A stretch of 33,016 bases of DNA from a virus (lineage: Duplodnaviria; Heunggongvirae; Uroviricota; Caudoviricetes). The notes under the pieces were generated by a model. The model saw only the letters and a program-made list of their open reading frames with translations. It did no database searches and had not been told where the DNA came from. Below are positions 7,603 through 33,016 of this stretch, one piece after another. The position numbers and the translations under genes were made by a program. Location: the IMG/VR virus record IMGVR_UViG_2513237200_000006; one strand, written 5' to 3'. Within the stretch, counting starts at the first letter, position 1, and every line of letters begins with the position of its first letter.

Positions 7603-9036
7603 ATGAAAAAGCAAAGTGAAATTAACGTAAAAAAATTAGCATCATGGAGATTTTCATTTAAAAACATTGGGTGTATCTCTACAGGAGAAATTAATGCAAA
7701 ACCTTTAACGCTTTTATGCGGAAAAAATAATACTGGTAAAACATGGGTTATGTATGGGTTATATGGCTTCCTAAATATGCCATCACCATCTTTAAAATTG
7801 CCTCAAGTTGCAAATTTTGCCAAAACTCTTCGTGAAAATGGTAAGTTTGAATTAGATGTAATTGAGTGGATAAAAGATAATTTTACGTTAATCAAAAGAG
7901 AATTTAATAAAGATTCATCTTTAATGCTTAAAGATGTATTCAACACTAATGATAAGGAAATTTTTTCTAATTCAACATTTGACTGGGTTATAGATGAAGA
8001 ATCATTAGTATCAAGTGTTTATGAAAAAAAATTGGATGTTAGCCTCGTCATAGGAACCGGCAAAAAAGAAGTAATGCTATTATCCAAAGATAAAAATAGC
8101 AATATCATACAAATGACGCTGCTAGATTCTGCTTTTCCCAGAATTGATGGGTTTATAAACTTAACTCTAAGTCAGTTATTAAAGATAGAGTATGATGAAA
8201 GCCCAGCATTTTTAATTCCCGCAGAAAGAAATGGCTTGCACCTTTTTTTCAATGAATTAAGTTCCAGAAGAACTGCGTTATTGCACCACGCCTCAAAAGA
8301 ACAGTTCGATCTGAACTCACTATTAATGGATGTAATGAAGTCTAAGTATTCTGCTCCTATAGCAAATTACATAGACTGGCTTAATGAAATTAAGGTTAAT
8401 AGGAAAAATAAAAATGGCCAATTTCATAAATTAGCAGAAGAAGTAAAAAAAATAATTTCAGGAAAATATTCAGTTGATCCTGAAGGGCAGATTTATTTTT
8501 CAACGTATAAGAAAGGTAAGACACCTGCAAGTAAAATTGAACTTCATTTATCGTCATCCACTGTTAAAAGTTTGTTTGGCCTGTGGTTTTATTTAGAGCA
8601 CCAAGCAAAAACTGGTGATATTTTAATGATTGACGAACCCGAGTTAAATTTACACCCGTCAAATCAGCGAGTAATTGCAAGATTTTTAGCAAAGCTAGTT
8701 AACTCTGGTATTCGGGTTATTGTTAGTACTCACAGTGATTATTTTGTGAAAGAAATCAATAGCTTGATTATGTTGCATGGCGTTTCTGAAAATATGATTG
8801 AAAAACGAAACGCTATCATGCAGAAGCAAGGGATTAGCATCGACTCAATTTTAGACTCTAACCTAGTCGCTGCGTATTTATTTGATAATGGCTCAGTCAA
8901 TGAAATGCAGAAGTCAAATGAAGGGATTAATGCTGTAACTTTTGATGAAGTAATTAATGCCATTAATGACGATAATGATGAAATATATTACTCCTTGGTG
9001 GAGAATGCCTCTGATAGTGAGGATGTAGATGAGTAA
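7603..9036 (+). CDS. Cargo protein 1: ABC/OLD-family (AAA_21-like) ATPase without a nuclease domain, 477 aa
   Basis: Walker A LLCGKNNTGKT near the N-terminus; signature-like HLSSST; Walker B/D-loop ILMIDEPELNLHP; H-loop VSTHSDYF; long insert between Walker A and B; acidic C-terminal tail. Codon usage is strongly AT-rich compared with the phage backbone. Confidence 0.8.
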   Translation: MKKQSEINVKKLASWRFSFKNIGCISTGEINAKPLTLLCGKNNTGKTWVMYGLYGFLNMPSPSLKLPQVANFAKTLRENGKFELDVIEWIKDNFTLIKREFNKDSSLMLKDVFNTNDKEIFSNSTFDWVIDEESLVSSVYEKKLDVSLVIGTGKKEVMLLSKDKNSNIIQMTLLDSAFPRIDGFINLTLSQLLKIEYDESPAFLIPAERNGLHLFFNELSSRRTALLHHASKEQFDLNSLLMDVMKSKYSAPIANYIDWLNEIKVNRKNKNGQFHKLAEEVKKIISGKYSVDPEGQIYFSTYKKGKTPASKIELHLSSSTVKSLFGLWFYLEHQAKTGDILMIDEPELNLHPSNQRVIARFLAKLVNSGIRVIVSTHSDYFVKEINSLIMLHGVSENMIEKRNAIMQKQGISIDSILDSNLVAAYLFDNGSVNEMQKSNEGINAVTFDEVINAINDDNDEIYYSLVENASDSEDVDE

Positions 9037-9601
9037 TATTATCAATGTAATACAAAGTTGCATCGATCCTACATTTCAATTAATGCGAGAGCAGGAATGC
9101 TGGGTTGTATGCGAAGAGAACCCAGGTGCTACAAATAAAAAATTACTGGTAAACGGAAATGGTATCTATGGATTTTCGCTAGATTCTAATAGTATTTCTA
9201 AACCAGTCTGGAAATTTTTAAAATCTTCTGCTTTACCAGGAGTATGCTCTGTTTGTGATGGAATTTTTGTTACGTCGCACAAAGACGTAGATTATTTTAT
9301 CGTAATAGATCTCAAATCTTATAACTCAAATGGTGCGGCTAAACAGGTAGTTACTGGCATTCATTTTTGTAAGTGGCTATATTCTGTATTGAATTTACAT
9401 GGGCATTTGTCAAGAAAAGTGGATTACATTGGTGTAATAAGTAAATTATCGAGGAGGCAGCAATCAGCTAAAAAAACAACTGTTCGCTCGCAATTGCCTC
9501 CTCCTGAAATTTGCTATAATTATCCTGTGTTTACATTGGAAAACTATAACAGATTATCACTGGCGCATATTTGTGACTTTATATACAATATGAAAAAATA
9601 A
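9029..9601 (+). CDS. Cargo protein 2: 190-aa protein of unknown function, possible PD-(D/E)xK-like or TOPRIM-like nuclease
   Basis: Start ATG overlaps the stop of the ATPase gene (ATGAGTAA), indicating translational coupling. Contains E-rich N-terminal strand (WVVCEEN), D in …VCDGIFV… followed 17 residues later by IVIDLK (a (D/E)xK-like motif), and a DVD triplet. The fold assignment is inference only. Confidence 0.6.
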   Translation: MSNIINVIQSCIDPTFQLMREQECWVVCEENPGATNKKLLVNGNGIYGFSLDSNSISKPVWKFLKSSALPGVCSVCDGIFVTSHKDVDYFIVIDLKSYNSNGAAKQVVTGIHFCKWLYSVLNLHGHLSRKVDYIGVISKLSRRQQSAKKTTVRSQLPPPEICYNYPVFTLENYNRLSLAHICDFIYNMKK

Positions 9602-10688: not shown

Positions 10689-12460
10689 CAGTAAAACTCC
10701 AGAATGGTGGATGTCAGCGGGGTGCTGATACCGGCGGTGAGTGGCTCATTTAACAGGGCGTGCATGGTCGCCCAGGCGAGGTCGGCGTGGCTGGCTTCCT
10801 CGCTGCGGCTGGCCTCATAGGTGGCACTGCGTCCGCTGCTGGTCATGGTCTTGCGGATAGCCATAAACGAGCTGGTGATGTCGGTGGCGCTGACGTCATA
10901 TTCCAGACAGCCACGGCGGATAACGTCTTTTGCCTTGAGCACCATTGCGGTTTTCATTTCCGGCGTGTAGCGGATATCGCGCGCGGCGGGATAGAACGAG
11001 CGCACGAGCTGGAACACGCCGACACCGAGGCCGGTGGCATCAATTCCGATGTATTCGACGTTGTATTTTTCGGTGAGTTTGCGGATGGATTCCGCCTGGG
11101 TGGCAAAGTCCATGCCTTTCCACTGGTGACGCTCAAGTATTCTGAATTTGCCACCGGCCACCACCGGCGGTGCCAGTACCACGCATCCGGCGCTGTCGCC
11201 ACGGTGTGACGGGTCGTAACCAATCCATACCGGACGTGAGCCGAACGGATTTGCGGCAAACGGCGCATAGTCTTCCCATTCTTCCAGCGTGTCGACCATG
11301 CAGCGTTGCAGCTCCTCGAACGGGAACACCGATGCCTTGTCGTCAACAAATTCACACATGAACAGGTTTTTAAAATCGTCGGCGCTGTTTTCGCGTTTGA
11401 GCTGCTCAATGTCGAACAGAGTGCAGCCACCTTTCAGGGCGTCCTCAATGGTGACAATCTGCCGCCACTGGCCGTCCGCACAGAGAAGACCTCCGGCAAG
11501 GGCGTTATGACTGACGTCGATTTCCACGCGTTCGGCGGCGCTGGCGCGTCCCCGGTTAAACAGTTCACCGGACCAGAACGGGTAGGCGTCGTGCGCCAGC
11601 GTGGATGGGGTGGAGAAATAGGTCGAGCGCAGGTGACTCTGTGAGGCCATACCTGATGCCACCTTACGGAGCACCTGAAAATTCGGGATCCAGAAAATCT
11701 CGTCGACGTACAGGTCGCCGTTATGGCTCTGCGCGGTGTTGGAGTTGGTGCCGAGAAAAATCAGTTTTGCGCCGTTATTGCCCAGGACAATTGGGTCACC
11801 GGTCAGGTCAACGTCAACCAGCCGGGCAAAGGCGATGATGTATTCGCGGAACACATACGCCTGCGTTTTACTGGCCGACAGAAAAATCTGGTTATGACCG
11901 GTTTTCAGGGCGCGCAGCAGCGCCTCGCGGGAAAAATAAAACGTCGCGCCAATCTGGCGGGATTTCAGGATATCGCGGATGCGGTGCTCAAGCCCGGCGC
12001 GATACCAGTGCAACTGATATTCGAAAGACTGCTCAAAGAAAATCTGCTCCAGCTTTTCGATGGCCTCGTCACTGAAAAAATTCTTTTTCGGTTTGCGACG
12101 CCCGCCTTTGTTGCGGTTAGCGACGTTCGGATTAAGGTCTGCCTCGTTGCCGGTCTGACTGTAACGGTTGACCCGTGCCAGTCGTTCAATCTGGCGTCCG
12201 AGCAGGTCAATTTCCTTGAAGTCACCGCCGGTTTTCTGCGGTTTGATGATGAGCTGGGTCAGCCGCGCTTCCAGACTCATTTCGACACGGCTGATGGGGG
12301 CAACGCTGTCCCAGCCGTCGCGCTGTTTCCAGCTCTGCACCGTCGGGCGTTTCATCTGCAACATGGCGGCAATCTGCGGCACGGAAAATCCCTGCCAGTA
12401 CAGCAGCGCCGCCTGACGACGCGGGTCGTGTAAAAGAGTGGTGTCTGTGGTGATGGTCAT
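10688..12460 (-). CDS. P: Terminase large subunit P (ATPase/nuclease), 590 aa from ATG 12460
   Basis: Large leftward ORF. Internal Met start (MTITTDTTLLHD…) has a GAGGT RBS. The ORF track's upstream extension is rejected. Position and length match P2 gpP. Confidence 0.88.
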   Translation of the reverse strand: MTITTDTTLLHDPRRQAALLYWQGFSVPQIAAMLQMKRPTVQSWKQRDGWDSVAPISRVEMSLEARLTQLIIKPQKTGGDFKEIDLLGRQIERLARVNRYSQTGNEADLNPNVANRNKGGRRKPKKNFFSDEAIEKLEQIFFEQSFEYQLHWYRAGLEHRIRDILKSRQIGATFYFSREALLRALKTGHNQIFLSASKTQAYVFREYIIAFARLVDVDLTGDPIVLGNNGAKLIFLGTNSNTAQSHNGDLYVDEIFWIPNFQVLRKVASGMASQSHLRSTYFSTPSTLAHDAYPFWSGELFNRGRASAAERVEIDVSHNALAGGLLCADGQWRQIVTIEDALKGGCTLFDIEQLKRENSADDFKNLFMCEFVDDKASVFPFEELQRCMVDTLEEWEDYAPFAANPFGSRPVWIGYDPSHRGDSAGCVVLAPPVVAGGKFRILERHQWKGMDFATQAESIRKLTEKYNVEYIGIDATGLGVGVFQLVRSFYPAARDIRYTPEMKTAMVLKAKDVIRRGCLEYDVSATDITSSFMAIRKTMTSSGRSATYEASRSEEASHADLAWATMHALLNEPLTAGISTPLTSTILEFY

Positions 12461-14623: not shown

Positions 14624-15367
14624 ATGACGAGTCCCGCACAGCGCCACATGATGCGGGTCTCGGCAGCGATGACCGCGCAGCGTGAAGCCGCCCCGCTGCG
14701 ACATGCAACTGTCTATGAGCAGATGCTGGTTAAGCTCGCCGCAGACCAGCGCACACTGAAAGCGATTTATTCAAAAGAGCTGAAGGCCGCGAAAAAACGC
14801 GAACTGCTGCCGTTCTGGTTGCCGTGGGTGAACGGCGTGCTGGAGCAGGGCAAAGGTGCACAGGATGACATTCTGATGACGGTCATGCTGTGGCGTCTGG
14901 ATACCGGCGATATTGCCGGTGCGCTGGAGATTGCCCGTTATGCCCTGAAGTACGGTCTGACCATGCCGGGTAAACACCGCCGCACCCCGCCGTACATGTT
15001 CACCGAGGAGGTGGCGCTTGCGGCCATGCGCGCTCACGCTGCCGGTGAGTCTGTGGATCCCCGCCTGCTGACGGACACCCTTGCACTGACCGCCACGGCA
15101 GACATGCCTGATGAAGTGCGCGCAAAGCTGCACAAAATCACCGGTCTGTTTCTGCGTGACGCTGGTGATGCCGCCGGTGCGCTGGCTCACCTGCAACGTG
15201 CGACACAGCTCGACTGTCAGGCAGGCGTCAAAAAAGAGATTGAACGACTGGAGCGGGAGCTGAAACCGAAGCCGGAGCCGCAGCCCAAAGCGGCCACCCG
15301 CACTCCGCGTAAGACCCGGAGCGTGACACCGGCAAAACGTGGACGCCCGAAAAAGAAAGCCAGTTAA
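14624..15367 (+). CDS. M: Terminase small subunit M, 247 aa
   Basis: 247 aa as P2 gpM. Basic C-terminal tail (…KRGRPKKKAS). Canonical position. Confidence 0.88.
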   Translation: MTSPAQRHMMRVSAAMTAQREAAPLRHATVYEQMLVKLAADQRTLKAIYSKELKAAKKRELLPFWLPWVNGVLEQGKGAQDDILMTVMLWRLDTGDIAGALEIARYALKYGLTMPGKHRRTPPYMFTEEVALAAMRAHAAGESVDPRLLTDTLALTATADMPDEVRAKLHKITGLFLRDAGDAAGALAHLQRATQLDCQAGVKKEIERLERELKPKPEPQPKAATRTPRKTRSVTPAKRGRPKKKAS

Positions 15368-19884: not shown

Positions 19885-20793
19885 ATGCCGATTATCGACC
19901 TGAACCAGCTACCCGCACCGGATGTGGTCGAGGAGCTGGACTTTGAAACCATTCTTGCCGAACGCAAGGCGACACTGATTTCCCTTTACCCGGAAGACCA
20001 GCAGGAAGCGGTCGCCCGTACCCTGACGCTGGAATCTGAGCCTCTCGTCAAACTGCTGGAGGAAAATGCTTATCGTGAGCTTATCTGGCGTCAGCGTGTG
20101 AATGAGGCTGCGCGGGCGGTGATGCTGGCCTGTGCCGCCGGTAATGACCTTGATGTGATTGGTGCCAATTACAACACCACGCGCCTGACTATCACCCCGG
20201 CAGATGATTCGACCATCCCGCCGACACCGGCCGTGATGGAATCTGACACCGATTATCGTCTGCGTATTCAGCAGGCGTTTGAAGGTTTAAGCGTCGCCGG
20301 GTCGGTGGGAGCCTATCAGTATCATGGTCGCAGTGCCGACGGGCGCGTCGCAGATATCTCTGTCACCAGTCCGTCTCCGGCCTGCGTCACCATCTCTGTG
20401 CTGTCACGTGAAAATAACGGTGTTGCATCCGAAGACCTGCTGGCCGTGGTGCGTAACGCCCTTAATGGCGAGGACGTCAGGCCGGTGGCCGACCGCGTGA
20501 CCGTGCAGTCTGCCGCCATCGTTGAATATCAGATAAACGCCACGCTTTACCTTTACCCTGGTCCCGAAAGCGAACCCATTCGCGCTGCCGCTGTGAAAAA
20601 GCTGGAAGCGTATATCACGGCACAGCACCGGCTGGGGCGCGACATCCGTCTGTCTGCCATTTATGCCGCTTTGCATGTTGAAGGCGTGCAGCGTGTCGAA
20701 CTGGCTGCACCACTGGCCGACATCGTGCTCAACAATACGCAGGCGTCTTTCTGTACCGAATACAGCGTCGTGACCGGAGGCTCGGATGAGTGA
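19885..20793 (+). CDS. J: Baseplate protein J, 302 aa
   Basis: 302 aa as P2 gpJ. Confidence 0.88.
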   Translation: MPIIDLNQLPAPDVVEELDFETILAERKATLISLYPEDQQEAVARTLTLESEPLVKLLEENAYRELIWRQRVNEAARAVMLACAAGNDLDVIGANYNTTRLTITPADDSTIPPTPAVMESDTDYRLRIQQAFEGLSVAGSVGAYQYHGRSADGRVADISVTSPSPACVTISVLSRENNGVASEDLLAVVRNALNGEDVRPVADRVTVQSAAIVEYQINATLYLYPGPESEPIRAAAVKKLEAYITAQHRLGRDIRLSAIYAALHVEGVQRVELAAPLADIVLNNTQASFCTEYSVVTGGSDE

Positions 20794-21397
20794 TTCGCGA
20801 CTGCTGCCGACCGGCTCATCACCGCTTGAAGTTGCCGCCGCAAAAGCCTGTGCGGAAATTGAAAAAACGCCGGTCAGGATTCGTGAACTGTGGAACCCGG
20901 ACACCTGCCCGGCAAATCTGCTGCCGTGGCTGGCGTGGTCATTTTCGGTTGACCGCTGGGATGATAAGTGGCCGGAAGCGACAAAACGCGCTGTTATCCG
21001 CGATGCGTATTTCATTCACTGCCATAAGGGCACCATAGGCGCAATCCGGCGTGTGGTGGAGCCGCTTGGCTATCTGATTGAGGTGAGGGAGTGGTGGCAG
21101 CTCAACGAGGAGCCGGGGACGTTCCGCATCGTTGTTGGCGTGCTTGAGCAGGGTATTACCGAGAAAATGTATCAGGAGCTGGAGCGCCTCGTTGCTGATG
21201 CAAAACCGGCGAGCCGCCATCTGACGGGACTGGCTATCAGTTTAAGTACAACCGGCAACATTTTTGCCGGTGCGGGATGCTATCACGGTGACGCCCTGAC
21301 GGTTTATCCCTACACCCCGGAGGCCATTATTGTCGGAGGGGATTATTTCCCGGCCTCGGCCATTCATTTAATTGATAACCTGAGAGTAAACGCATGA
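20786..21397 (+). CDS. I: Baseplate/tail fibre attachment protein I, 203 aa
   Basis: Canonical position between J and H. Overlaps both neighbours. Confidence 0.8.
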   Translation: MSDSRLLPTGSSPLEVAAAKACAEIEKTPVRIRELWNPDTCPANLLPWLAWSFSVDRWDDKWPEATKRAVIRDAYFIHCHKGTIGAIRRVVEPLGYLIEVREWWQLNEEPGTFRIVVGVLEQGITEKMYQELERLVADAKPASRHLTGLAISLSTTGNIFAGAGCYHGDALTVYPYTPEAIIVGGDYFPASAIHLIDNLRVNA

Positions 21398-22677
21398 CAG
21401 TGAAATACTACGCCATTCTGACTAATCAGGGCGCAGCACGGCTGGCTAACGCGACGATGCTCGGCAGTAAGCTGAATCTGACGCAAATGGCCGTTGGTGA
21501 TGCGAATGGTGTCTTGCCGACACCAGACCCGGCACAGACAAAACTGATTAATCAGAAACGCATTGCACCGCTGAATCTTCTGAGTGTTGACCCGAACAAC
21601 CAGAGCCAGATTATTGCGGAGCAAATCATCCCTGAGAACGAGGGCGGATTCTGGATCCGTGAGATTGGGCTTTATGATGATGAAGGCGTACTCATTGCGG
21701 TGGCGAACTGCCCGGAAACGTACAAACCGCAGTTACAGGAAGGCAGCGGTCGTACCCAGACTATCCGCATGATTCTGGTTGTCACGAATACCGAAGCTAT
21801 CACGCTGAAAATCGACCCGTCGGTGGTACTGGCGACCCGTAAATACGTGGATGATGAAGTCCTGGAATTAAGGCTGTATGTGGATGACCAGATGAGAAAC
21901 CACATTGCCGCACAGGACCCTCATACCCAGTATGCCCAGAAACATAATCCGACATTTACCGGAGAACCAAAAGCGCCGACGCCTGCCGCAGGAAATAACA
22001 CCACGCGGATTGCGACTACTGCGTTTGTTCAGGCCGCTATTACCGCTCTGATTAACGGTGCGCCTGCCACGCTGGATACACTGAAAGAAATTGCCGCAGC
22101 CATTAACAATGACCCGAAATTCAGCACCACCATTAACAATGCGCTGTCAGGTAAGCAACCACTGGATGAGACGCTGACTCATTTGAGTGGAAAAGATGTG
22201 GCTGGTCTTCTCGCATACCTTGGTTTGGGAGAAGGTGCTCCAGCTATTGGCGTTCCGTTCTTCTGGCCCTCCGCGGCAATGCCAAATACTGTAATCGACA
22301 GCTGGTCCAGTATGGTGTTTTTGAAGTTTAACGGGGCGAAATTTTCTGCCTCTGATTACCCTGTGCTGGCGAAAGTGTTTCCTTCGCTGGTATTACCTGA
22401 AGCCCGCGGTGATTTCATTCGTGTCTGGGATGACGGGCGAGGTGCAGATGGTGGTCGCGAATTATTAAGCTGGCAGGAAGCTACAAACTTTTCTCAGTTT
22501 GCCGGGAATATAGGCGGAGGTGCTGGACACGCAATTAACTTTCATGATGGCATCGCCGGAAATCAGCCAGGATTTTCACGATTTAATTTCAACAGTAACT
22601 CTGTGGGTGATGGTGTGAATTTTGTTGCTGTCAGACCGCGAAATATTGCATTTAACTTTCTGGTGAGGGCTAAATAA
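21394..22677 (+). CDS. H: Tail fibre protein H (P2-like N-terminus fused to an invertible, Mu S/lambdoid-Stf-like C-terminal receptor-binding part), 427 aa in current orientation
   Basis: N-terminus (…REIGLYDDEGVLIAVAN…GSGRTQTIRMILV…) resembles the P2 H anchor. C-terminal part (…DYPVLAKVFPSLVLPEARGDFIRVWDDGRGADGGR…) resembles side tail fibre C-termini. The crossover repeat lies inside the gene at 22220-22234. Confidence 0.85.
   Translation: MTVKYYAILTNQGAARLANATMLGSKLNLTQMAVGDANGVLPTPDPAQTKLINQKRIAPLNLLSVDPNNQSQIIAEQIIPENEGGFWIREIGLYDDEGVLIAVANCPETYKPQLQEGSGRTQTIRMILVVTNTEAITLKIDPSVVLATRKYVDDEVLELRLYVDDQMRNHIAAQDPHTQYAQKHNPTFTGEPKAPTPAAGNNTTRIATTAFVQAAITALINGAPATLDTLKEIAAAINNDPKFSTTINNALSGKQPLDETLTHLSGKDVAGLLAYLGLGEGAPAIGVPFFWPSAAMPNTVIDSWSSMVFLKFNGAKFSASDYPVLAKVFPSLVLPEARGDFIRVWDDGRGADGGRELLSWQEATNFSQFAGNIGGGAGHAINFHDGIAGNQPGFSRFNFNSNSVGDGVNFVAVRPRNIAFNFLVRAK
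22220..22234. repeat. Left inversion crossover site (gix/hix-like): TTGGTTTGGGAGAAG; perfect 15-bp inverted repeat with 24046-24060
   Basis: Exact reverse complement present at 24046-24060. Encodes GLGE in both H and the alternative fibre segment, in frame. Resembles the GGTTTTGGATAA half of Gin/Hin recombination sites as recalled. Confidence 0.75.
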
Positions 22678-23270
22678 TGAAACCTGTTTTTGATGAAAAT
22701 GGGCTGGCTACAGTGCCGGGTGATATGCGTTGTTTTTATTATGATGCAGTAACGTCTGAATATACGGGCTGGTCTGATGAATATATTAATACTGGCGTAA
22801 GTATGCCCGCCTGTTCCACTGGTATTGACCCGGACGAAAACATTCCGGGAAGAGTGGCAGTATTTACAGGTAAGGGATGGAGCCATGAGGAAGACCATCG
22901 CAATGAGACTGTTTACTCAATCGAAAATGGCGCAGCTGTTACAGTGGATTATATCGGTGCCATCAAAAACGGTTATGTCACGCTTTCACCGTTAACGCCA
23001 TATGATAAATGGGATGGTGAGAAATGGGTGACAGATACTGAGGCACAACACGGTGCCGCAGTAGAAGCGGCAGAAGCACAGCGCCAGTCACTGATTGATG
23101 CAGCAATGGCTTCCATTAGTCTGATTCAGCTGAAATTACAGGCCGGGCGGAAACTGACGCAGGCAGAAACAACCCGGCTTAACGCTGTGCTGGATTACAT
23201 TGACGCGGTGACGGCAACAGATACCAGCACCGCGCCGGATATCATCTGGCCTGAACAGCCGGAGGCGTAG
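22677..23270 (+). CDS. G: Tail fibre assembly chaperone (G/Tfa, U-type), 197 aa
   Basis: C-terminal …LDYIDAVTATDTSTAPDIIWPEQPEA is a typical Tfa signature. Immediately follows H inside the invertible segment. Confidence 0.85.
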   Translation: MKPVFDENGLATVPGDMRCFYYDAVTSEYTGWSDEYINTGVSMPACSTGIDPDENIPGRVAVFTGKGWSHEEDHRNETVYSIENGAAVTVDYIGAIKNGYVTLSPLTPYDKWDGEKWVTDTEAQHGAAVEAAEAQRQSLIDAAMASISLIQLKLQAGRKLTQAETTRLNAVLDYIDAVTATDTSTAPDIIWPEQPEA

Positions 23271-23682
23271 GCCATTCAATATCTGGAGCACTGGAAATAT
23301 CAACCATTTCCAGTGCGTCCAGATAATCAAGCCATGAATTATATTGCGCCAGTTCCTCACCTTTCAGACGACCAATAGCAGCCTTTCCTAGCCACTGCTT
23401 ACTGTTAATATATTCATTAACTCGATTTATGAGTGCCTGTTTTTTTCGTTCCGCTTCTGACAGTTGTTCTTCATGAGTTAGCGGCGGTACGTCATCCCAT
23501 GCAGGATAGCCATCATCACCCGCAACTCTCACCTTCCCAGGAGGTGGGGACAGGTACTTAATAAATATATCCTCATCAACTTCAACTCCATTATGAGGCC
23601 ATAACCCAGACTCCTTATACTGACTTTCCAGAGTAAATGGGTAAAACATATTAGTTTTTGCATCGTAAAGATATTTACTCAT
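23242..23682 (-). CDS. Alternative tail fibre assembly chaperone (U'-type), 146 aa from ATG 23682
   Basis: Opposite-strand Tfa with C-terminal …LDYLDALEMVDISSAPDIEWPTPP. Internal Met start has an AGGA RBS. Convergent with G inside the invertible segment. Confidence 0.8.
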   Translation of the reverse strand: MSKYLYDAKTNMFYPFTLESQYKESGLWPHNGVEVDEDIFIKYLSPPPGKVRVAGDDGYPAWDDVPPLTHEEQLSEAERKKQALINRVNEYINSKQWLGKAAIGRLKGEELAQYNSWLDYLDALEMVDISSAPDIEWPTPPAVQAR

Positions 23683-23683
23683 T

Positions 23684-24046
23684 TTATCTTCCTGTAGCAA
23701 ACCAGCGGCAACCAGCGACAGTTGGAACATTGAAGGATGGATTTCCTTTATCAAGAGATCCCAGGTTCTCTGCTATGACATTTGAGTTAGTCAATTTATA
23801 GAATTGCCATACTGACATTTTCCCTGCCACAGGAGCCTGGTCATGTTCATTAATAGAAATGACGGCTGTCGGAAATGGGATAGGAAAATTAATCAAAACT
23901 TCATTTGTTGTGGCCTCAGTTAGCCCCCATTGTTCAATATAACCATCCGGGCTTCGCCTCCATCCCGTCGTTGTATCTCCCCCACACTCCCACGCTGACA
24001 TATCAGGAATTTGGTTTTGCCCGTTACCCACATCCCGTTTTGCCGC
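23684..24046 (-). CDS. Alternative tail fibre C-terminal segment (Sv'-like), promoterless and start-less in this orientation
   Basis: Minus-strand reading frame runs from the right crossover repeat (encoding …VGLGE…) to a stop at 23684, directly upstream of the U'-type tfa. Inversion would fuse it in frame to the H N-terminus. Confidence 0.7.
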   Translation of the reverse strand, partial: AAKRDVGNGQNQIPDMSAWECGGDTTTGWRRSPDGYIEQWGLTEATTNEVLINFPIPFPTAVISINEHDQAPVAGKMSVWQFYKLTNSNVIAENLGSLDKGNPSFNVPTVAGCRWFATGR

Positions 24047-24060
24047 TTCTCCCAAACCAA
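24046..24060. repeat. Right inversion crossover site (inverted copy of 22220-22234)
   Basis: CTTCTCCCAAACCAA is the exact reverse complement of the left site. Lies about 70 bp upstream of the invertase start. Confidence 0.75.
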
Positions 24061-24127
24061 CGTTTATGAAAATGCAGAGATAACGGGCAACTGGCATCAT
24101 CTCCGGTTTTTATTCAGGGGGATGCTC

Positions 24128-24721
24128 ATGCTTATTGGCTATGTACGCGTGTCAACAAATGACCAGAATACGGAATTGCAGCGTAACGCGCTGGAGTGCG
24201 CAGGATGTGAGCTGATTTTTGAGGACAAAATCAGCGGCACGAAGTCCGACAGGCCGGGACTGAAAAAACTGCTCAGGACATTATCGGAGGGGGATACACT
24301 GGTAGTCTGGAAGCTGGACCGGCTGGGGCGTAGTATGCGGCATCTGGTCATTCTGGTTGAGGAGCTGCGCGAACGCGGCGTTAATTTTCGCAGCCTGACG
24401 GATGCTATTGATACCAGCACGCCGATGGGGCGTTTTTTCTTTCATGTGATGGGTGCCCTGGCCGAAATGGAACGAGAACTCATTGTCGAGCGGACACGCG
24501 CCGGACTGGAAGCGGCCAGAGCCAAAGGTCGTATTGGTGGCAGACGACCGAAACTCACCGCGAGTGAGTGGGAGCAGGCCGGGCGTTTGCTGGCTGCAGG
24601 GGAGTCACGTCAACGCGTGGCACTGATTTTTGATATTGGTCTGTCCACGCTCTATAAAAAATTTCCCTCATCAGCGACAAAGAATAAATTGTGTCATCCC
24701 TTAGCCAACCGGGACAAATAG
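24128..24721 (+). CDS. Serine DNA invertase (Gin/Pin/Hin family), about 197 aa from ATG 24128
   Basis: N-terminus MLIGYVRVSTNDQNTELQRNAL… contains the catalytic Ser of the resolvase/invertase family and closely resembles Gin/Pin as recalled. C-terminal HTH (…GLSTLYKK…). The ORF track's upstream extension is rejected. Confidence 0.9.
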   Translation: MLIGYVRVSTNDQNTELQRNALECAGCELIFEDKISGTKSDRPGLKKLLRTLSEGDTLVVWKLDRLGRSMRHLVILVEELRERGVNFRSLTDAIDTSTPMGRFFFHVMGALAEMERELIVERTRAGLEAARAKGRIGGRRPKLTASEWEQAGRLLAAGESRQRVALIFDIGLSTLYKKFPSSATKNKLCHPLANRDK

Positions 24722-24780
24722 CCTGACATCTCCGGCACAACTGAAAATACCACTCACCCATTAACCACGGAGTTAAACGG

Positions 24781-25971
24781 ATGAGCGACTATCATCATGG
24801 CGTGCAGGTGCTGGAGATTAACGACGGCACCCGCGTCATTTCCACTGTATCCACCGCCATTGTCGGCATGGTCTGCACGGCCAGCGATGCGGATGCGGAA
24901 AGCTTCCCCCTCAATAAACCGGTGCTGATTACCAATGTGCAGAGCGCAATTGCAAAGGCCGGTAAAAAAGGTACGCTGGCGGCGTCGTTGCAGGCCATCG
25001 CTGACCAGTCAAAACCGGTCACCGTTGTCGTGCGCGTGGAAGACGGAACCGGCGACGACGAAGAAACGAAGCTCGCGCAGACCGTTTCCAATATCATCGG
25101 CACCACCGACGAAAATGGTCAGTATACCGGACTGAAAGCTCTGCTGGCGGCAGAGTCGGTAACCGGTGTTAAACCGCGTATTCTTGGTGTGCCGGGGCTG
25201 GATACCAAAGAGGTGGCTGTTGCACTGGCATCAGTCTGTCAGAAGCTGCGCGCTTTCGGATATATCAGCGCATGGGGCTGTAAGACCATTTCCGAGGTGA
25301 AAGCCTACCGCCAGAATTTCAGCCAGCGTGAGCTGATGGTCATCTGGCCGGATTTCCTCGCATGGGATACGGTCAGCAGCACCACCGCCACCGCGTATGC
25401 CACCGCCCGTGCGCTGGGTCTGCGCGCTAAAATCGACCAGGAGCAGGGCTGGCATAAAACGCTGTCCAATGTCGGGGTAAACGGTGTTACCGGCATCAGT
25501 GCCTCTGTATTCTGGGATTTGCAGGAGTCCGGCACCGATGCTGACCTGCTTAACGAGTCAGGCGTCACAACGCTGATTCGCCGTGACGGTTTCCGCTTCT
25601 GGGGTAACCGTACCTGCTCTGATGACCCGCTGTTCCTCTTTGAAAACTACACCCGCACCGCGCAGGTGCTGGCCGACACGATGGCTGAGGCGCACATGTG
25701 GGCGGTGGACAAGCCCATCACCGCAACGCTGATTCGCGACATCGTTGACGGCATTAATGCCAAATTCCGTGAGCTGAAAACAAACGGCTATATCGTGGAT
25801 GCGACCTGCTGGTTCAGCGAAGAATCCAACGATGCGGAAACCCTCAAGGCCGGAAAACTGTATATCGACTACGACTATACCCCGGTGCCTCCTCTCGAAA
25901 ACCTGACCCTGCGCCAGCGTATCACCGATAAATATCTGGCAAATCTGGTCACCTCGGTTAACAGCAATTAA
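24781..25971 (+). CDS. FI: Tail sheath protein FI, 396 aa
   Basis: 396 aa as P2 gpFI. Followed by FII. Confidence 0.9.
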   Translation: MSDYHHGVQVLEINDGTRVISTVSTAIVGMVCTASDADAESFPLNKPVLITNVQSAIAKAGKKGTLAASLQAIADQSKPVTVVVRVEDGTGDDEETKLAQTVSNIIGTTDENGQYTGLKALLAAESVTGVKPRILGVPGLDTKEVAVALASVCQKLRAFGYISAWGCKTISEVKAYRQNFSQRELMVIWPDFLAWDTVSSTTATAYATARALGLRAKIDQEQGWHKTLSNVGVNGVTGISASVFWDLQESGTDADLLNESGVTTLIRRDGFRFWGNRTCSDDPLFLFENYTRTAQVLADTMAEAHMWAVDKPITATLIRDIVDGINAKFRELKTNGYIVDATCWFSEESNDAETLKAGKLYIDYDYTPVPPLENLTLRQRITDKYLANLVTSVNSN

Positions 25972-31654: not shown

Positions 31655-33016
31655 TCACTTACCGTGGGGATTACGCGTGGTTTCCCCGGAGAAATTACGC
31701 ATCAGCAGCGCGTAATTGAGCTCAAGATCCTGCGGGACCGGGAGCCACACAGTATAACCATCGCCTGGTGCTATCGGCATAGCTTCGCCTTTGGCGTTTT
31801 CCATGTGCTCAAGGGTAAAATTAATGTTGCCTTGCGGCGTCATCAGCTCAAGGCTGTCGCCAACGGAGAATTTATTTTTCACCGCTACCGCCGCGAGGTC
31901 CCCCTTGCGCTCACCGGTAAACTCACCAACAAACTGCTGGCGGTCAGAAACTGAATAACCGTATTCGTAGTTCTGATAATCGTCGTGAGTATGACGACGC
32001 AGGAAACCTTCGGTATAGCCACGATGCGCCAGACCTTCCAGAGTTTCCAGCAGGCTGGTATCGAACGGTTTTCCCGCAGCGGCGTCATCGATAGCTTTGC
32101 GGTAAACCTGTGCGGTGCGTGCACAATAGTAGAAAGATTTGGTACGACCTTCGATTTTCAGCGAATGCACGCCCATTTTGGTCAGGCGTTCTACATGGGC
32201 GATGGCGCGCAGATCTTTCGAGTTCATGATGTAAGTGCCGTGCTCATCTTCAAACGCGGTCATATACTCGCCCGGACGCTGGGCCTCTTCGATCATAAAC
32301 ACTTTGTCGGTTGGTGCGCCGATACCCAGCGTCGGCTCAACATTTTGCACCGGAATCGGCTCGTACTTGTGTACGATGTTGCCAACATCATCTTCTTTCC
32401 CTTCCTGGACGTTGTACTCCCAGCGGCAGGCGTTGGTGCAGGTGCCCTGGTTCGGGTCGCGCTTGTTGATATAGCCAGAGAGCAGGCAGCGACCGGAGTA
32501 GGCCATGCACAGCGCGCCGTGAACGAAGATCTCGATCTCCATATCCGGCACCTGATTGCGGATCTCTTCAATCTCTTCCAGCGACAGCTCGCGAGAGAGG
32601 ATCACGCGGGTCAGGCCCATTTGCTGCCAGAATTTCACCGTCGCCCAGTTCACGGCGTTAGCCTGCACCGAAAGGTGGATCGGCATTTCAGGGAAGTGCT
32701 CACGCACCAGCATAATCAGCCCTGGATCGGACATAATCAGCGCATCCGGCCCCATTTCCACCACCGGTTTCAGGTCACGGATAAAGGTTTTCAGCTTGGC
32801 GTTGTGCGGTGCAATGTTGACCACGACATAAAACTTTTTCCCCAGCGCGTGGGCTTCATTGATGCCGAGCTGAAGATTTTCGTGGTTGAATTCGTTGTTG
32901 CGCACACGCAGGGAATAACGCGGCTGGCCCGCATAAACAGCATCTGCGCCATAAGCGAAAGCGTAACGCATATTTTTCAGCGTTCCCGCCGGGGAAAGGA
33001 GTTCCGGTTTAAACAT
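31655..33016 (-). CDS. yegQ: Host U32-family peptidase-like protein YegQ (tRNA hydroxylation-associated), 453 aa; start codon at the window edge
   Basis: Full 453-aa ORF ending exactly at the window boundary. Cys-rich motifs (…CMAYSGRCLLSGY…GTCTNACRW…) typical of the U32 family. Synteny with cyaR. Confidence 0.75.
   Translation of the reverse strand: MFKPELLSPAGTLKNMRYAFAYGADAVYAGQPRYSLRVRNNEFNHENLQLGINEAHALGKKFYVVVNIAPHNAKLKTFIRDLKPVVEMGPDALIMSDPGLIMLVREHFPEMPIHLSVQANAVNWATVKFWQQMGLTRVILSRELSLEEIEEIRNQVPDMEIEIFVHGALCMAYSGRCLLSGYINKRDPNQGTCTNACRWEYNVQEGKEDDVGNIVHKYEPIPVQNVEPTLGIGAPTDKVFMIEEAQRPGEYMTAFEDEHGTYIMNSKDLRAIAHVERLTKMGVHSLKIEGRTKSFYYCARTAQVYRKAIDDAAAGKPFDTSLLETLEGLAHRGYTEGFLRRHTHDDYQNYEYGYSVSDRQQFVGEFTGERKGDLAAVAVKNKFSVGDSLELMTPQGNINFTLEHMENAKGEAMPIAPGDGYTVWLPVPQDLELNYALLMRNFSGETTRNPHGK

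Follow-up and report, generated by a model that had tools for sequence, protein, structure and literature searches.

Does this P2-like prophage build its tail fibre in one form or in two, and, if in two, what switches between them? The question is raised by a locus in IMG/VR record IMGVR_UViG_2513237200_000006, a stretch of 33,016 nucleotides (nt) from a virus of the class Caudoviricetes (hereafter the window; positions are counted from its first letter). At this locus, the tail fibre gene H runs into two cassettes of opposite orientation, each composed of a fibre tip and a tail fibre assembly (Tfa) chaperone gene, and these are followed by a gene encoding a serine DNA invertase. Nucleotide comparison places the window among the P2-like (Peduovirus) prophages, and its sequence at this locus does not differ from that of Wphi2 of Escherichia coli W. 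We hold with high confidence that the tail fibre of this prophage is controlled by a Pin-type site-specific inversion switch, as an earlier sequence-only reading of the window, made from the letters and their open reading frames (ORFs), had proposed.

The Inverted Repeat and the Crossover Sites

The segment is bounded by a 15-nt inverted repeat, TTGGTTTGGGAGAAG, located at 22220-22234 on the plus strand and at 24046-24060 on the minus strand without any mismatch. No further match to TTGGTTTGGGAGAAG was present in the whole window, even with two mismatches allowed. The left arm lies within the H ORF (21394-22677), at codons 276-281, and 67 nt separate the end of the right arm from the ATG of the invertase gene at 24128. 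The repeat is thus present at exactly the coordinates given in the sequence-only reading, which had placed it inside H and about 70 bp upstream of the invertase.

The length of the repeat, taken by itself, is statistically unremarkable for 33 kb of DNA. In first-order Markov simulations of the window, in which non-overlapping perfect 15-nt inverted repeats were counted, the mean was 0.7 pairs per window, the probability of at least one pair was 0.41, and this fell to 0.11 when the arms had to lie within 3 kb of each other. Repeat length was rejected as evidence in view of this expectation and of an unrelated second pair in the window; the significance of the repeat therefore rests on its match to known crossover sites and on its context. 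The second perfect 15-nt pair, CCAGTCGTTCAATCT at 12178-12192 and AGATTGAACGACTGG at 15237-15251, has arms 3 kb apart, is located in the capsid/terminase region, and has no obvious meaning; it is probably a chance occurrence, since about 0.7 such pairs are expected per window. An inverted match of 14 out of 15 positions (22235-22249 and 23277-23291) abuts the left repeat and encodes similar peptides, GAPAIG in the current fibre tip and SAPDIE at the C-terminus of the opposed chaperone, and by our own estimate it was judged to be at chance level and set aside as a signal.

The match to known sites was determined by comparison with those taken from the annotated Mu, P1, and e14 records, according to which two 26-bp crossover sites of the pix/cix/gix (Pin) type are built around the repeat. 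The left, pixL-like site occupies 22208-22233 on the plus strand (TTCTCGCATACC TT GGTTTGGGAGAA, central dinucleotide 22220-22221), and the right, pixR-like site occupies 24047-24072 on the same strand (TTCTCCCAAACC AA CGTTTATGAAAA, central dinucleotide 24059-24060). The right site and its right-hand counterpart in the e14 P region agree at 26/26 positions, the left site and the left e14 site at 23/26. In these sites, the 15-nt repeat takes in the inner half-site together with the central dinucleotide and extends by one more base; the inner half-sites of the left and right sites are identical to each other, while the outer half-sites differ, as is likewise the case in e14 and P1. On the plus strand, the central dinucleotides are TT (left) and AA (right), which are reverse complements of each other, matching the requirement for inversion. 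When compared to the half-site consensus, the left site has two mismatches and the right site three, and the best other 26-mer of the window has eight. A third crossover site was sought across the window and none was found, the eight mismatches of the next-best 26-mer being at chance level. A shufflon-like arrangement of three sites, as in one P2-like prophage of enteropathogenic E. coli (EPEC), was rejected accordingly, as the window holds only two.

Two Fibre Tips Joined in Frame to One Constant Part

As currently assembled, H (21394..22677, plus strand) is an intact ORF of 427 amino acids (aa) composed of a constant part and a first tip, tip A. The N-terminal Phage_tail_fib domain (PF12571) covers aa 1-150 with an E value of 2.5e-62, and the protein matches the tail protein family phrog_327 (E 2e-193). 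The constant part (21394..22219, plus strand) lies outside the segment and corresponds to the N-terminal 280 residues, which, from homology to the H proteins of Peduovirus magyaro and P2, would provide baseplate attachment and the shaft. Residues 1-259 are 97% identical to H of P. magyaro and 42% identical to P2 H, and the shaft repeats are 62-74% identical to P1 S.

Within the segment, tip A (22235..22677, plus strand) is the putative receptor-binding C-terminus that H carries in the current orientation; it is StfE-like, with 41% identity to StfE of e14 (E 3e-28). It is followed by tfaA (22677..23270, plus strand), which encodes the predicted chaperone of tip A, with a Caudo_TAP domain (PF02413, E 4e-28), a match to phrog_105, and 62% identity to TfaE of e14. 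On the minus strand, and silent in the current orientation, are tip B (23684..24045), the alternative C-terminus of H with a Gp53-like_C domain (PF21882, E 2.6e-12), and tfaB (23242..23682), encoding the TfaP-like chaperone predicted for tip B (PF02413, E 3e-34), the C-terminal half of which is 67% identical to TfaP of e14. Tip B had no detectable similarity to StfP of e14; neither the chaperones compared to P2 G nor the tips compared to Mu S/S' showed homology at E < 1e-3. The two tips belong to unrelated families, StfE-like and gp53-like_C, so they likely recognize different receptors. The G+C content of the inner segment (40-48%) lies below that of the backbone (51-59%), which fits imported cassettes.

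In-silico inversion of 22220-24060, a segment of 1,841 nt (about 1.84 kb), left H open in both states, with 427 aa as found and 400 aa when flipped. The junction reads ...LAYLGLGE-GAPAIG... as found and ...LAYLGLGE-AAKRDV... when flipped, LGLGE being common to both. The fusion to tip B corresponds to an intact 400-aa "phage tail protein", WP_096147429.1, in two genomes that carry the flipped arrangement, and in flipped assemblies tfaB is annotated as a tail fiber assembly protein directly 3' of the 400-aa H. ORFs and domains thus bear out the two opposed cassettes of fibre tip and tfa between the repeats, and the inversion in silico bears out the claim that both junctions encode GLGE in frame.

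The annotation of these genes in public records is uneven. In the RefSeq records of E. coli W, the intact 427-aa ORF of H is entered as a pair of partial pseudogenes ("missing C-terminus" and "missing N-terminus"), and flipped genomes have the intact 400-aa protein; the pseudogene calls look like an artefact of annotating a tip fusion that is less common. A separate ORF of 138 aa (23684-24100, minus strand) starts with an ATG just beyond the right site (MMPVARYLCIFINVGLGE...) and continues into whichever tip is silent. RefSeq names it as a separate gp53-like domain protein. Its start resembles that of e14 stfE, and the Mu Sv' coding sequence also runs beyond the boundary of the G segment.

This ORF bears on the possibility that the switch serves the lysogen, with one orientation, or the 138-aa ORF itself, yielding a receptor-masking tip protein that blocks other phages. 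Such a role would agree with the StfE-like character of tip A (41% identity) and the pix-type sites, as PinQ-driven inversion of e14 has been reported to create StfE2, which blocks T2 adsorption; it would also agree with the short ATG-initiated leader that always precedes the silent tip and with the separate gp53-like protein in RefSeq. In contrast, the prophage looks complete and P2-like, with H situated within the late operon. Late genes of P2 are not expressed in the lysogen. A simple sigma-70 consensus scan gave no promoter for the 138-aa ORF (23684-24100), and the conservation of its leader is explained by the outer half-site and the control region of the invertase. We therefore consider a benefit to the host as the purpose of the switch to be very unlikely. 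If it were true, the module would be defence or lysogenic-conversion cargo at the Z/fun hotspot and not only a host-range device.

Both Orientations in Public Genomes

If the segment inverts between these sites, genomes carrying the same locus should be found in both arrangements. A 3.4 kb locus spanning the module was 100% identical in E. coli W and its derivatives LY180, AQ15, SL112, HBUT-L, and hubt-sl, all of which have the orientation of the window. The exact sequence flipped in silico was present at 100% in strain B-766 and in NZ_CM135829.1. Alignments to the flipped assembly change strand inside the 15-nt repeat, and the 1,841-nt segment shows 0 mismatches between the window and the flipped NZ_CM135829.1. 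In the latter, the prophage is situated at the chromosomal site it has in E. coli W, next to trhP/yegQ, and the chromosomal flank matches that of E. coli W over 22,779 nt with 0 mismatches and a single indel; apparently, this is a flip that took place in the E. coli W lineage, with the prophage at an unchanged chromosomal site. Strain B-766 was considered as E. coli W itself and rejected, as 40 positions in 8.5 kb of its prophage flanks differ from W. A census of 5,426 complete genomes gave, among those in which at least 80% of the 3.4 kb locus was covered, 16 in the orientation of the window and 17 in the flipped one. The sequence-only reading had named the detection of a single orientation, together with a catalytically dead invertase, as grounds for giving up the switch; both orientations were found.

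NZ_CM135829.1 (4.83 Mb) is labelled "DH5alpha", and this label is probably wrong, because the prophage lies beside trhP/yegQ and 22.8 kb of flank match E. coli W. A second record labelled "DH5alpha" and of 4.83 Mb, NZ_CP026085.1, looks similar. Between the window and the E. coli W assemblies, substitutions are clustered at 20232-20887 and 25896-25953, a pattern suggestive of gene conversion, or of cross-talk during assembly, involving the two P2-like prophages of this strain, which closely resemble each other. The E. coli W genome paper describes these two prophages as hard to assemble; it lists Wphi2 at the cyaR site and is silent on the switch.

The census also bears on the idea that the repeat is a chance or fossil feature of a fixed segment, the differences between assemblies being due to assembly error or to RecA-dependent recombination. 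The number of repeats expected in 33 kb (about 0.7), the unrelated second pair in the window, and the difficulty of assembling the two P2-like prophages of E. coli W can be brought forward for it. Against these stand the 26-bp sites in which the repeat is embedded, with their 26/26 and 23/26 matches to e14, the breakpoints located exactly within the repeat, and the approximately 1:1 ratio of orientations among 33 independent complete genomes; moreover, 15 nt would be too short to mislead assemblers or to allow efficient RecA recombination. This idea is already largely refuted, and the probability that we leave to it is minute. The site matches and the breakpoints inside the repeat identify the repeats as recombination sites, as originally proposed, and inversion between the two sites occurs in nature.

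The Invertase, Its Leader, and the Enhancer Homologue

The gene adjacent to the right site (24128..24721, plus strand) encodes a serine DNA invertase of 197 aa that falls into the Pin/Gin/Cin/Hin subfamily, whose members measure about 190 aa. It has an N-terminal Resolvase domain (PF00239, E 2e-52) and an HTH_7 domain (PF02796, E 1e-12) over aa 138-181, and it matches the Gin crystal structures 3uj3/4m6f with an E value of 1.6e-94. Identity amounts to 86% with PinE, 77% with Gin, and 78% with Cin, and in the alignment of these proteins Y5, R7, S9, D64, R65, and R68, as well as the helix-turn-helix region, are invariant. The domains, the identity to PinE, and Ser9 with the other invariant residues all support the original assignment to the Gin/Pin type. 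When compared to PinE, the protein has a C-terminal extension of 13 residues. Positions at which activated mutants are known, such as Hin-H107Y or V114 of the crystallised Gin, carry the wild-type residues H106 and M114; normal enhancer dependence is therefore expected.

The leader (24073..24127, plus strand) presumably holds the promoter and the ribosome-binding site of the invertase gene; over 24030-24135, mean column identity in the alignment of the window, e14, and Mu is 78%, with e14 being closer. The sequence-only reading had suggested looking for a Fis-dependent enhancer in the 5' part of the invertase gene, and a homologue of the recombinational enhancer lies there at 24146..24217 (plus strand). 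In cin, the counterpart of this stretch is nt 19-90, for which the P1 record gives the annotation "enhancer of Cin-mediated C-segment inversion"; the nucleotide identity of the stretch to gin, cin, and pinE is 76-83%. Two blocks, GT(R)TCAACAAATGA and G(Y)GCAGGATG(Y)GA, are kept in all four genes. The stretch contains two 15-mers of the form G-N13-C, 49 bp apart (24149-24163 and 24198-24212); about 97 bp separate the nearer one from the centre of the right site, a distance that is the same in e14 and within 1 bp in Mu (distances to the site were counted by hand).

Several points weigh against reading the locus as a tail fibre switch operated by its own enzyme. A simple sigma-70 consensus scan of the leader gave no hit for an invertase promoter, and Fis binding and enhancer function are assigned by homology. 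The Pfam Collar match of tip A is weak (E 0.008) and falls under the curated cut-off. The two orientations were drawn from different assemblies and not from one culture. Finally, the other prophage invertases of E. coli W could flip the segment in trans: according to the genome paper, a Mu prophage and another P2-like one are present in this strain as well, and the inversions observed are therefore not assignable to the local enzyme with certainty.

Taken to its end, the last point would mean that flipping of the segment is largely or entirely the work of a trans-acting enzyme, either Gin of the Mu prophage WMu or the invertase of the second P2-like prophage, the local one being inactive or irrelevant. 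The invertases Gin, Cin, Pin, and Hin are interchangeable. The presence of the Mu prophage and of two very similar P2-like prophages in E. coli W would provide the enzymes, and PinQ of the Qin prophage inverts the P segment of e14 in trans. On the other hand, the local gene is intact and its product, 86% identical to PinE, has kept all catalytic and DNA-binding elements; its enhancer homologue and leader are conserved as well; and many unrelated strains with the same module show both orientations. Inversion exclusively or mainly in trans thus seems unlikely to us, and the Pin-type switch served by the adjacent invertase remains the preferred reading.

Proposed Mechanism

From the Hin/Gin paradigm, we infer the following course of events. 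Dimers of the invertase would bind the inverted sites at 22208-22233 and 24047-24072 and would form a synapse that includes the enhancer, bound by Fis and situated in the 5' part of the invertase gene at a distance of about 97 bp from the right site. Cuts staggered by 2 nt would then be made by Ser9 at the central TT/AA dinucleotide of each site, and a 180-degree rotation of one half of the tetramer followed by religation would leave the segment inverted. Depending on the orientation, the late V-operon transcript would encode the constant part of H with tip A and tfaA, or the constant part of H with tip B and tfaB; either tip would be fused in frame because both inner half-sites encode GLGE in the frame of H, and its own chaperone gene would directly follow. 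Induced lysogens may consequently release a mix of two virion types with differing receptor specificity, a form of host-range bet-hedging.

Position of the Module in the P2 Backbone

The genes encoding Tail_P2_I, H, FI, and FII follow the P2 gene order, and the early region of the window has 96-97% nucleotide identity to P2. In P2, the interval from G (14747-15274) to FI (17652) is composed of a terminator and the lysogenic-conversion gene fun(Z) on the opposite strand, with no invertase, while in the window the G-FI interval contains tfaB, tip B, the right site, and the invertase gene. This is in line with the earlier statement that canonical P2 lacks an invertase and that the module sits in the Z/fun slot.

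On the right-hand side, near-identity to P2 restarts at about 24690-24701, in the last invertase codons, and runs into FI. This P2-homologous stretch upstream of FI (24690..24780, plus strand) contains the pF late-promoter region, for which the P2 annotation gives an activator-binding site and the start of the F operon. The 13-residue extension of the invertase and its stop codon are encoded by this pF region, including the activator-binding stretch. By alignment to P2, the module has been grafted onto the backbone at the 3' end of the invertase gene, because the last codons and the stop (24680-24721) are near-identical to P2 pF, and the late promoter of the F operon is predicted to overlap the invertase ORF. 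The right-hand flank is formed by the tail sheath gene FI (24781..25971, plus strand), with the domains Phage_sheath_1 and Phage_sheath_1C and syntenic with P2 FI.

Elsewhere in the window, the last ORF (31655-33016, minus strand, 453 aa) is the host gene trhP/yegQ, so that the prophage ends on the right before the window does; immediately ahead of this gene are ogr and the attachment site. At the position of the P2 old/tin hotspot (7603-9601), there is a two-gene module encoding an AAA_15 ATPase of 477 aa and a protein of 190 aa, which match the PADLOC models PD-T4-4_A (E 2e-112) and PD-T4-4_B (E 1e-15), respectively. This module is a candidate prophage-borne anti-phage defence system.

Comparison with Known Inversion Systems

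The closest relative of the module is the P region with PinE of e14, a defective prophage of E. coli K-12. Both share the layout of a fibre constant part, two converging cassettes of tip and Tfa, and the pin gene, with the GLGE junction, the leader, and the spacing from site to gene also being the same. The differences are that e14 is a defective lambdoid element, whereas the window has a complete P2-like myovirus backbone; that the constant part in the window is a P2 H-type N-terminus; that tip B is gp53-like_C, without similarity to StfP; and that the invertase of the window is 13 residues longer. The Mu G segment with Gin and the P1 C segment with Cin have in common with the window the 26-bp inverted sites, an invertase gene that immediately flanks the segment and carries an enhancer in its 5' end, and a separate chaperone for each of the alternative fibre C-termini. 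In contrast, the segment measures about 3 kb in Mu and 4.2 kb in P1 compared to 1.84 kb here, the tips of the window are much smaller (about 120-147 aa), and the phage family is different. Furthermore, the repeat of Mu is at least 34 nt long, as opposed to 15 nt in the window, and the tips of the window are unrelated to Mu S/S'. The layout likened beforehand to the Mu G segment, the P1 C segment, and the e14 P region did match all of them in a side-by-side comparison of annotations. With P2, the prophage shares the gene order I-H-G...FI-FII and a nearly identical pF promoter region; P2 differs in having a single H of 669 aa, one G, and the terminator with fun(Z), and in lacking an invertase and a second cassette.

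The sequence-only reading overrated the novelty of the module, for the same arrangement is annotated in phage records and has been published. Records of the phages magyaro, pro483, and S164 and of Salmonella MET_P1_103_31 show a DNA invertase beside paired tail fiber assembly genes; the invertase is annotated as hin in phage records and as "recombinase family protein" in S164. In P. magyaro, recorded as "Escherichia phage P2" from O157:H43 T22, the invertase is located directly before FI. The phage records cover at most 62% of the 3.4 kb locus, and the other P2-like invertase loci have the same backbone, the same position between fibre and FI, and the same logic, differing only in the tip and chaperone cassettes. 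Goldberg et al. (2014) found coexisting orientations in two P2-like prophages of EPEC E2348/69 by sequencing and PCR, with two variants in one prophage and four in the other, and interpreted them as fibre switching. One of the EPEC prophages has three sites and four variants, while the prophage of the window has only two sites. In the genome announcement of LT7 by Zaworski et al. (2021), the fibre gene of Fels-2 is next to fin, and inversion is described or inferred; the work of Egorov et al. also belongs to the literature cited for the module being known. As invertases in the Z/fun hotspot of P2-like phages are already published, the system at this hotspot is correctly recognized but ordinary.

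What the locus shows is a Pin-type inversion cassette grafted into a P2 backbone at the G-FI (Z/fun) hotspot, and its significance beyond correct annotation is small. Fibre genes at inversion loci are easily mis-annotated, and assemblies of the same strain may legitimately disagree on the orientation of the segment. Accordingly, predictions of host range for P2-like phages should consider both tips.

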